Source: Candidatus Aenigmatarchaeota archaeon
GTDB taxonomy: Archaea; Aenigmatarchaeota; Aenigmatarchaeia; Aenigmatarchaeales; JACQIB01
DNA: 6,706 nt
Assembly: GCA_046760225.1 (NCBI GenBank)
Contig: JBHIDR010000035.1
Span: 1-6,706 of the forward strand
Direction: 5' to 3'
Shown here: piece by piece, positions 1,330 to 3,410 of the stretch
Layout of the letters: each line of letters opens with the position of its first letter
How positions within the stretch are numbered: position 1 is the first letter of the stretch
Notes under the pieces: model-generated
The model's input: only the letters and a program-made list of their open reading frames with translations
The model's database searches: none
What the model was told of the DNA's origin: nothing
Program-made: the position numbers and the translations under genes

Positions 1330-2837
1330 ATGCCTGAAATAAGTCTCAAAAAAATAGATGAGCTGCGCTGGGAGATACCCATAGGAACGATTCCAAATAT
1401 GCGCGTTCCTGTAAGGGTCTTTGCCAGTGAGCCCATGCTCGAGAAGATGAAGCGTGACAGGACGCTCACACAAGGAGCTGGCGTTGCAACACTGCCAGGG
1501 ATTTATAAGCATGCCATTGTTCTGCCGGATGGGCACGAGGGATATTCTGTAAATGATTTTTGCAGAACCTTAAATGGGTTCCCAATCGGCGGGGTGGCTG
1601 CACTTGATTTCAAGGAAGGCGGAATAAGCCCTGGCGGAATAGGATTGACTAAATAGTGTTAGCTTTTAGTCCCTAAAATGATATCAATTGTGGCGTGCGG
1701 CTTGTTACCACTAATCTCACGATTAAGGATGTAATGCCGAAAATAAAGGAGCTGTTGGAGGCGTTGTTCAGGAACATTCCCTCGGGCTTGGGCTCCAAGG
1801 GAAAAATAAAGGTATCAACTGATGTCCTGAACACTGTCCTGGAAAAAGGAGCTGCCTGGGCTGTTGAAGAAGGCTATGGATGGAAAAAGGACCTTGAGCA
1901 CCTTGAATCGAACGGCAGGATTGATGCTGATGCTTCGCTTGTGAGCAGCAGGGCAAAGGACAGGGGCAAGCCACAGCTCGGTAGCCTGGGTTCAGGTAAC
2001 CATTTCATTGAAGTGGAAAAGGTTGACAAGATATTCAGTCCTGAAGTTGCAAAGGCATTCGGCATCCATGATACTGATCAAATAGTTGTGCTTATACACA
2101 CAGGCTCAAGGGGGTTTGGGCACCAGGTATGCAGCGATTACCTGAGGGAAATGGAAAGAAAGTTTGCTGACATTATCGCAAAGCTGCCTGATCGTGAGCT
2201 TGTATATGCTCCTGCCGGGACACAGATGGCAAAGGACTATCTGCTTGCAATGGGATGCGCTGCTAATTTTGCCTGGACCAACAGGCAGATGATAGTGCAC
2301 TGGGCAAGGCAAAGCTTTGAAAGGATATTCAAGAAGAGTGCAGAGGACATGGAAATGAACATCATCTATGATGTTGCCCACAACATCTGCAAGATAGAGG
2401 AGCATGAAGTCAATGGAAAGAAAGCAAAGGTGTACATGCACAGGAAAGGGGGAACAAGGGCATTCCCTCCAGGACATCCTGAAATACCTTCTGAATACCG
2501 TTCAGTTGGCCAGCCTGTGTTTATTCCTGGAAGCATGGGAACAGCTTCCTATGTGCTTCATGGAGTAGACGAAGGGAAGGTTACGTTCTTCTCAACTGCA
2601 CATGGTGCAGGAAGGGAGATGAGCAGGCATGCTGCGCTCAGGCAGTGGAGAGGGGAAAGGGTCAAGAAAGAGCTTGAGGCAAGGAACATCTTTGTGCGCA
2701 GCGCAAGCTGGAAGGGGATTGCAGAAGAGGCTCCTGGTGCATACAAGGACATAGATGAGGTAGCAAGAGTGAGTGACGAGACAGGCATCGCAAAGCGCGT
2801 CTCAAGGCTTGTGCCTGTGGGTGTTGTGAAGGGATAA
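1330..2837 (+). CDS. rtcB: RNA-splicing ligase RtcB, intron-containing: join(1330..1543,1574..1645,1678..2837), 481 aa
   Basis: Exons of 214+72+1160 nt total 1446 nt, i.e. 481 aa plus stop. The spliced product has all RtcB motifs: LPDGHEGYGFPIGGV, SPGGIGYDINCGVRL, GSLGSGNHFIEV, IHTGSRGFGHQV, YDVAHN, HRKG, PGSMG, STAHGAGR and EEAPGAYKD. Archease is nearby. Confidence 0.93.
1544..1573 (+). other. rtcB intron 1: 30-nt BHB (archaeal tRNA-type) intron, in frame, no stop
   Basis: Central helix AGGG(1538-1541)/CCUU(1568-1571). Bulges AUA(1542-1544) and AAA(1572-1574). Inner 9-bp stem UUCUGUAAA(1545-1553)/UUUGCAGAA(1559-1567). Outer exon-exon pairing of 1522-1537 with 1575-1592. Removal restores GGA TAT GGG TTC (GYGF). 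Confidence 0.85.
1646..1677 (+). other. rtcB intron 2: 32-nt BHB-like intron, frameshifting, with in-frame TAG
   Basis: Central helix UAGG(1640-1643)/CCUA(1672-1675). Bulges AUU(1644-1646) and AAA(1676-1678). Inner 7-bp stem GACUAAA(1647-1653)/UUUAGUC(1665-1671). Removal restores GGA TAT GAT ATC AAT TGT GGC GTG (GYDINCGV) and joins the two ORFs in frame. Confidence 0.9.
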
Positions 2838-3410
2838 TCAGTTTGCAATGAACTCGAATATTCTTTCAAAAGAACGTGGCGTATGATCACACAGAGCATG
2901 ATAGAGCAAGGAGTCAAATTTCCTTGCATCATCCTCATTGAGGTAGTTTGTCTCGAACCAGAGCTGCGGTCTCATGTCAGTGGTCTTTCTCAGGGCCTCG
3001 CCGTTCGACTTTGCTGTAACCATGTATACCTCTATTCCCTGATTCTTTCCCTTGTAGGCGATTGCATTGCGGTCTGAGGCTATTACCTTTATCATCTTGA
3101 ACTTCTCCTTGTCCCCGTCCTCTATGGCCTTGGCTGTATCTTCAAAGTCAGAGGAAAAGCAGTAGGCCTTTTTAACAACGTACAGGTCTTCTCCGTCTTC
3201 CCTTTCAACTGCCTTGAGGTCCTTTTCCATTATTTCATTGAAGTATTCGGCAGCGCCTTCTGAACTCTGGGGTGCAACTGTACTTTTCTTGAACTCCTCT
3301 TCTGTTATTCCAAACTCCTTTAATGACTCATAAAAGGGCTTGTTGTCCACAGCATACGCAAAGACAGCTGCCCAAACCTTGGATAGATATATGCTCGGAT
3401 CTGGCATCAT
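2838..3410 (-). CDS. Hypothetical protein (190 aa, acidic)
   Basis: Long ORF with protein-like composition that fills the gap between rtcB and the next gene. GAGGAGA RBS on the minus strand at 3412-3418. No family recognised. Confidence 0.7.
   Translation of the reverse strand: MMPDPSIYLSKVWAAVFAYAVDNKPFYESLKEFGITEEEFKKSTVAPQSSEGAAEYFNEIMEKDLKAVEREDGEDLYVVKKAYCFSSDFEDTAKAIEDGDKEKFKMIKVIASDRNAIAYKGKNQGIEVYMVTAKSNGEALRKTTDMRPQLWFETNYLNEDDARKFDSLLYHALCDHTPRSFERIFEFIAN

Follow-up and report, generated by a model that had tools for sequence, protein, structure and literature searches.

In the passage concerned, a 2023 review names only two spliced archaeal mRNAs, cbf5 and HVO_1309, and expects more (PMC10485636). 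We considered rtcB in a 6,706-nt stretch of DNA (hereafter the window, which is the whole of contig C35, JBHIDR010000035.1) from the genome of a Candidatus Aenigmatarchaeota archaeon (GCA_046760225.1), where 32 nt at 1646-1677 interrupt the gene at its metal-binding DINC motif. We conclude, with a probability of about 85%, that this insert is a genuine archaeal bulge-helix-bulge (BHB, tRNA-type) intron of the rtcB mRNA, constitutively spliced, a selfish or neutral passenger and one of two in the gene. The interrupted gene encodes the ligase completing this very splicing reaction and is interrupted twice, once within a metal-binding motif, which poses a bootstrap problem, namely how the cell line survives if the ligase is ever lost.

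The closest described system is the BHB intron of the cbf5 pre-mRNA of Crenarchaeota (Yokobori 2009, PMC2738675; PMC10485636), which, in the sections of these papers that describe it, is likewise a short and somewhat relaxed BHB-type intron in an archaeal coding mRNA, occurs in hosts with two-subunit endonucleases and has a patchy pattern of gain and loss among relatives. By contrast, rtcB encodes the ligase of the splicing pathway itself, carries two introns in one gene, has at least nine distinct insertion points within two hot spots of ~13 nt, and the host belongs to a DPANN-like class. The cbf5 pre-mRNA intron is reportedly also the subject of Watanabe 2002 and Yoshinari 2006. As for the HVO_1309 mRNA of Haloferax volcanii, it is similarly cut by the splicing endonuclease at a BHB, but is not connected with the splicing machinery in the review passage (PMC10485636). 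The XBP1/HAC1 system, ligated by RtcB or Trl1, resembles the present one, in the part of PMC10630183 that bears on it, by a short frame-shifting intron, the use of an endonuclease with a tRNA ligase, and an active protein made from the spliced mRNA alone; there, unlike in rtcB, which is presumably cut by a housekeeping endonuclease, stress-activated IRE1 makes the cuts and the switch is demonstrated. Archaeal tRNA BHB introns, including those at non-canonical positions in DPANN as presented in the relevant part of PMC5829648, have the motif and the bulge composition, and presumably the enzymes, in common with the rtcB introns. Many such introns are also present in the tRNA genes of this genome; in rtcB, unlike in these, the host RNA is an mRNA and the exon side has no stable tRNA helix.

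The inteins of archaeal RtcB occupy the same conserved motif and likewise have to be excised with precision if the enzyme is to work, but they are removed as protein, measure ~480-500 aa and carry a homing endonuclease, whereas intron 2 would be removed as RNA, has 32 nt and contains no open reading frame (ORF). Another such RtcB intein is that of Pyrococcus PH1602. No published description of introns in rtcB was found in full-text literature searches, and these introns apparently form a recurrent and undescribed pattern; what is new is the intron at the DINC site and the sharing of hot spots by introns and inteins. Two questions are raised by this: whether the splicing pathway of these uncultivated archaea acts routinely on mRNA, and whether inteins and short BHB introns have come by convergence to occupy the same indispensable motifs.

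The interrupted rtcB gene and its DINC-site intron

The gene is located at 1330-2837 and is single-copy, being the sole PF01139 match in a search of the whole assembly (851,505 bp in 83 contigs, 83% complete). The parts of the gene and of the intron at the DINC motif (intron 2) are as follows.

1330-1543, + strand: rtcB exon 1, from Met1 to base 1 of the Tyr72 codon (ORF, Pfam RtcB profile positions 3-47, scripted splice)
1574-1645, + strand: rtcB exon 2, 72 nt, its last base being base 1 of the Tyr96 codon (scripted splice, alignment to the intronless gene of the same-genus genome G001)
1646-1677, + strand: intron 2, 32 nt, frame-shifting, splitting Tyr96 after base 1, before Asp97 and Cys100
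1654-1656, + strand: in-frame TAG within intron 2, which terminates the unspliced frame
1678-2837, + strand: rtcB exon 3, from the remainder of Tyr96 and DINCG to the stop codon (Pfam RtcB profile 52-426; residues 95-481 of PDB 1uc2)
1640-1643, + strand: exon strand of the central BHB helix, 4 bp with 1672-1675, present in the minimum-energy fold of 1625-1695 and recovered by the alignment fold
1644-1646, + strand: 5' three-base bulge, predicted cut 1645/1646
1647-1671, + strand: inner hairpin, 7 bp (1647-1653/1665-1671) plus 3 bp (1655-1657/1662-1664)
1672-1675, + strand: intron strand of the central BHB helix, pairing with 1640-1643
1676-1678, + strand: 3' three-base bulge, predicted cut 1677/1678

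An earlier sequence-only reading of this DNA had described intron 2 as a frame-shifting insert with an in-frame stop that leaves an N-terminal fragment of 108 residues and splits Tyr96 just before Asp97 and Cys100. All of this holds: a length of 32 nt shifts the reading frame, the unspliced frame from ATG 1330 has 108 codons and ends at the TAG, and a second ORF of 380 aa begins at GTG 1695. Pfam accordingly divides the gene between ORF 1330-1656 (profile 3-47) and ORF 1695-2837 (profile 52-426, E = 2.3e-145), neither of which encodes YDINCG, as had been stated. By script, joining 1330-1543, 1574-1645 and 1678-2837 produces an open frame of 1446 nt, encoding 481 aa, with the junction contexts HEGY/GFPIGG and GGIG-Y-DINCG; the splice agrees with the described division of Tyr96.

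From Asp97 onward the spliced product aligns end to end, without large gaps, with residues 95-481 of Pyrococcus horikoshii RtcB (1uc2), placing D97 opposite D95 of that enzyme and C100 opposite its C98. D95 and C98 are ligands of metals M2 and M1/M2, respectively, in the description of the metal sites in PMC9745838, which together with the alignment bears out the earlier assignment of the Asp and Cys of DINC as metal ligands. D and C, the GSGNH, HTGSRG and AHN motifs and HGAGR are all kept in the 1uc2 alignment, every metal and guanosine monophosphate ligand position aligns to the Pyrococcus enzyme, and no further lesion is present over the 481 codons. Exons 1 and 2 together have 79% identity to the intronless gene of G001. 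Four runs of a single study, which may include the source sample, yielded DNA contigs that carry both introns; these contain neither indels nor an intronless joint, so an assembly artefact is unlikely, and of the 11 strain differences that they reveal in exon 3, 8 affect the third position of a codon.

When 1625-1695 is folded alone, the minimum-energy structure is a BHB of canonical 3-4-3 form, its inner stem having 7 bp. BHB substrates are cleaved after the second base of each bulge, and the cuts predicted in this way coincide with the borders that restore both the frame and GIGYDINCG. This strict geometry, found at the motif-restoring pair of cuts, is shared by only 30 of the 14,343 other cut pairs lying within 12 nt. 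No Rfam covariance model matched any part of the window at E <= 1, so intron 2 is neither a group I nor a group II intron, and an intein is ruled out by the length of the insert and its stop codon, the inteins of relatives having ~500 aa and PF14890.

rtcB introns and inteins across the class

With the intronless same-genus protein (G001) as query, we surveyed 42 genomes of the order and 371 of the class, 331 of the latter giving a match; we then read 30 loci that the first search had returned, along with 20 additional regions, and listed the motif-restoring cut pairs for each interruption. In this way 26 rtcB introns, of 13-165 nt, were verified in 21 genomes of nine families. The breaks concentrate at query residues ~69-75 and ~95-99, that is with 19 introns at five positions in the HxGYGFPIGG region and seven introns at four positions in the GIGYDINCG region. 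A complete central helix (4/4) with 3-nt bulges and an inner stem is formed by 16 of the 26 introns and at least three of four pairs by 23 of them, as compared with 30 and 204, respectively, of the 14,343 other cut pairs; the three introns with 2/4 all belong to one genus.

Introns of 30, 22, 19 and 19 nt occupy the same site and codon phase as intron 2 in G008, G065, G124 and G136. The strict exon pattern at this position was matched by six of the 371 genomes, five of which have true introns (these four and the present genome, G000), the sixth match (G045) being rejected as ordinary coding sequence with no intron. RNAalifold, applied to four same-site introns, recovered the BHB without its outer helix, with four of nine pairs changing on both sides; one compensatory change, from A-U to C-G, joins a synonymous exon position to an intron base. 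The closest relative, the same-genus genome G001, has neither of the two introns of the present gene.

The first of these two introns is located at the other hot spot:

1544-1573, + strand: intron 1, 30 nt, in frame and with no stop, a canonical BHB whose removal restores HEGYGFPIGG
1538-1541/1568-1571, 1542-1544, 1572-1574 and 1545-1553/1559-1567, + strand: the helix, the two bulges and the 9-bp inner stem, respectively, of the intron 1 BHB (BHB scans)

The fold of 1520-1595 is strongly structured around intron 1 (z = -3.47), with a long exon-exon helix, and the intron, if left unspliced, would add ten residues within HEGY-GFPIGG. After splicing, both introns have the same 7-base context, GGAT/ATG (Gly-Tyr codons; window 1540-1546/1574-1576 and 1642-1645/1678-1680), each following base 1 of the Tyr codon. 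A search of the genome for copies of intron 1 (blastn-short) returned only chance matches of <=14 nt.

Inteins interrupt the same motifs. The sequence-only reading had named DINC as an intein site in some archaeal RtcBs; two relatives of the same family (f1), G003 and G004, have an intein at DIN/C, and the observation extends to G145, with an intein after GYGF that contains a LAGLIDADG domain, so that both intron hot spots are also intein sites. All 26 introns are located 2-17 nt upstream of intein insertion points. At site 2, two genomes of family f1 have an intein, two have an intron and three have neither, and no genome has both.

Several of the rtcB inserts differ from the usual form. In G016, G021 and G024, which belong to one genus, a site-1 insert of 32-33 nt has an inner stem of 8 bp in two genomes and 4 bp in G024, with just two of the four central pairs in the canonical register; its bulges may be shifted and the motif genuinely relaxed. 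In G212:C80, the Ile codon of DINCG is interrupted (about 633-798 of the locus) by 165 nt containing several stops; this insert, far longer than the other rtcB introns, forms all four central pairs (4/4) and an inner stem of 8 bp. Contigs end exactly at rtcB hot spots in G224:C25, G070:C19, G027:C11 and G021:C41 and start there in G027:C27 and G035:C7, which could reflect mixed intron or intein alleles in the sampled populations. Gene callers will split such an rtcB into two annotated fragments or label it a pseudogene, and several assemblies break their contigs there. As regards the protein itself, RtcB of the present genome and of G001 has 66-72% identity to families f2/f3 and just 48-54% to its own family f1, a pattern of sequence identity that points to lateral transfer or to two RtcB lineages.

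Splicing machinery, proposed mechanism and alternative explanations

The genome encodes two PF01974 splicing-endonuclease subunits on contig C2 (products of 163 and 178-202 aa), with a nitroreductase-like ORF between them, and the gene pair was found in 21 of 24 relatives searched and is conserved across the order. The downstream, catalytic subunit (C2:23819-24352) has 3iey_A as best PDB match (E = 4.5e-35) and shares with it an inserted loop, resembling the one seen in Nanoarchaeum equitans, that separates the Tyr and the His of the active site; the upstream subunit (C2:22784-23242) has no His at the position aligned with the active-site His of 1a79. The architecture, which the sequence-only reading had named as a check on its proposal of a broad-specificity enzyme, is hence probably two-subunit, with a loop insert like that of Nanoarchaeum equitans in the catalytic subunit. 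According to the part of PMC5829648 concerned, a loop insert originally noticed in Nanoarchaeum and ARMAN-2 is present in diverse DPANN lineages and is associated with a greater number of disrupted tRNA genes. We liken the present loop to it by resemblance, as a candidate for the same insert. The motif around the Ala residue considered below and two Lys of the inserted loop are invariant in the seven genomes aligned. ARAGORN found only 21 tRNA genes and called introns in 13, some at odd positions; it probably misses many others because they are too disrupted.

Near rtcB in the window there is also a gene for archease:

405-830, + strand: intact archease gene (RtcB cofactor family; Pfam PF01951, E = 7.2e-47)

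No second 3'-5' RNA ligase was found in this genome (83% complete). A PF09414 match was rejected as an RNA ligase, since it is an ATP-dependent DNA ligase.

The transcript can fold with exon bases 1640-1643 paired to intron bases 1672-1675, between two 3-nt bulges and beside the inner hairpin; we propose that the two-subunit endonuclease would then cut both bulges, at 1645/1646 and 1677/1678, and that pre-existing RtcB with archease would join the exon ends, which would bear a 2',3'-cyclic phosphate and a 5'-OH. The joined mRNA alone encodes Tyr96-Asp97-Ile-Asn-Cys100 and the remainder of the enzyme. The intron would persist because imprecise deletion in that motif destroys the enzyme, and the same logic of an indispensable motif would explain the inteins at the same two hot spots. 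If RtcB joins the exons of its own mRNA, its synthesis depends on RtcB inherited from the mother cell, and the cell probably requires existing RtcB for making new RtcB. Carried further, RtcB would ligate its own mRNA twice in a self-referential circuit, its synthesis being autocatalytic, heritable only through carry-over of the protein and serving, under selection, as a gauge of splicing capacity or an addiction-like lock, while RNA-level and protein-level elements contest the same DNA targets; this extended scheme we regard as speculative and doubtful.

Several observations weigh against intron 2 being a spliced BHB intron. The exon-side helix adjoining the bulges has only 1 bp (A1639-U1679), as noted before, and the strict helix-BHB-helix (hBHBh') form has flanking helices of at least 2 bp on both sides; with an inner helix of 7 bp and an outer helix of 1 bp, intron 2 is thus relaxed on the exon side. 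The sequence-only reading had spoken of a relaxed substrate resembling a bulge-helix-loop, a label that is right as to the weak outer helix but overstates the relaxation, the core being canonical. It had also proposed to fold 1590-1700: in this 111-nt context the BHB conformer can be formed, at -23.1 kcal/mol when enforced, but the minimum-energy fold is a different one (-28.0 kcal/mol), so that the BHB is 4.9 kcal/mol above the minimum. Fold z-scores of the intron-2 region (-0.25 and -0.29) are not significant, and together with the competing fold this means that thermodynamics alone does not single out intron 2. The catalytic subunit of the endonuclease keeps Tyr and His and has Ala at the textbook position of the catalytic Lys in the seven genomes aligned (7/7), so its activity is assumed. 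A LigT/2H-family protein is also encoded, and at 83% completeness the assembly could lack a second rtcB or another ligase. Finally, both the cleavage and the ligation of the rtcB transcript are what we infer from DNA sequence. It is position and comparative data, not thermodynamics, that single out intron 2 as an element.

The pairing between the following two exon segments had been taken, in the sequence-only reading, as a sign of such a relaxed substrate:

1597-1612, + strand: exon-2 segment of a long-range helix, 14 of 16 pairs with 1679-1694, lineage-specific and of doubtful role
1679-1694, + strand: exon-3 partner, pairing with 1597-1612

The 14 pairs are real, and they are the best among the 24 genes compared; when the upstream 106 nt were shuffled, only 282 of 20,000 sequences reached this number. 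In 20 genes with no site-2 intron, the corresponding segments already form 6-12 of 16 pairs (mean 10), because both encode conserved residues, and the three other same-site carriers tested, with 10, 11 and 8 of 16 pairs, are at this level; we consequently rejected the helix as a conserved feature. It may assist in this lineage, outside the conserved design.

This helix bears on the on/off switch that the sequence-only reading had seen in intron 2. In such a device, splicing of intron 2 would be rate-limiting and RtcB output would track the splicing and ligation capacity of the cell, with the long helix presenting or hiding the BHB. The inability of unspliced RNA to yield active enzyme, the need of the mRNA for the gene's own product, the outstanding pairing in this genome and the competing minimum-energy fold of the longer context would all suit a feedback of this kind, but the helix is not conserved in same-site carriers, the closest relative does without any intron, and positions and lengths vary so widely among lineages that passengers fit better than a tuned device. 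Nothing that we examined indicates regulated over constitutive splicing, and we judge a switch to be rather unlikely. It is also improbable, and more clearly so, that the introns are kept as an immunity against inteins, by breaking the DNA target of the homing endonuclease from their positions just upstream of the intein points: the shared hot spots (DIN/C in G003 and G004, GYGF in G145 with its LAGLIDADG domain), the 26 of 26 introns in the same upstream interval and the absence from f1 site 2 of any combination of the two elements are in its favour, but the sample numbers are very small, and survival of both elements in indispensable motifs alone would account for the co-location equally well.

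Two further explanations would dispense with splicing. A decaying pseudogene, in which the inserts are inactivating lesions and ligase activity comes from elsewhere, for example from a host, would agree with the broken reading frame and the small genome (851 kb), probably that of a symbiont; we hold it to be very improbable, as the 481 codons contain no other lesion and retain all catalytic residues, the BHB geometry of both inserts is exact, inserts of this kind recur in 21 genomes with compensatory changes, and the exon-3 strain differences are mostly at third codon positions. Decoding of the unspliced message, either by ribosomal bypass of the 32 nt or as two separate polypeptides forming a split enzyme, the second of them the 380-aa product from GTG 1695, is scarcely credible: Tyr96-Asp97-Ile-Asn-Cys100 is in neither ORF, Cys100 corresponds to a residue that bridges both metals in the metal-site description of PMC9745838, and the structure matches a BHB and co-varies as RNA. 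The passenger BHB intron thus remains our preferred reading of 1646-1677.

Other BHB candidates and the neighbourhood of rtcB

A strict genome-wide BHB scan, which misses in-frame stop-free introns and relaxed introns, gave 1,461 motif matches, the removal of which extends an open frame by >=40 aa in 39 cases. Both halves of 20 of the 39 were compared with Pfam, and in none of the 20 was the same family present on both sides; one candidate on C25 has immunoglobulin-like repeats on both sides and is ambiguous. The survey is partial, 17 of the 39 being outside the Pfam comparison, apart from the rtcB and endonuclease candidates. The latter (C2:23243-23265), which would join both endonuclease genes, was rejected, as the nitroreductase-like ORF intervenes. 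On the same contig, a 340-aa ORF (C2:19643-20662) has a weak LAGLIDADG_3 match, below the cut-off (E = 0.0013).

In the window, the other neighbours named by Pfam are a minus-strand winged-helix gene, a weak S26e-like ORF, Rpb4, DUF655, an rRNA adenine dimethylase, an MGMT-like DNA-binding domain and DUF763. Directly downstream of rtcB, on the opposite strand, lies a 190-aa ORF (2838-3410, - strand) with no Pfam family.

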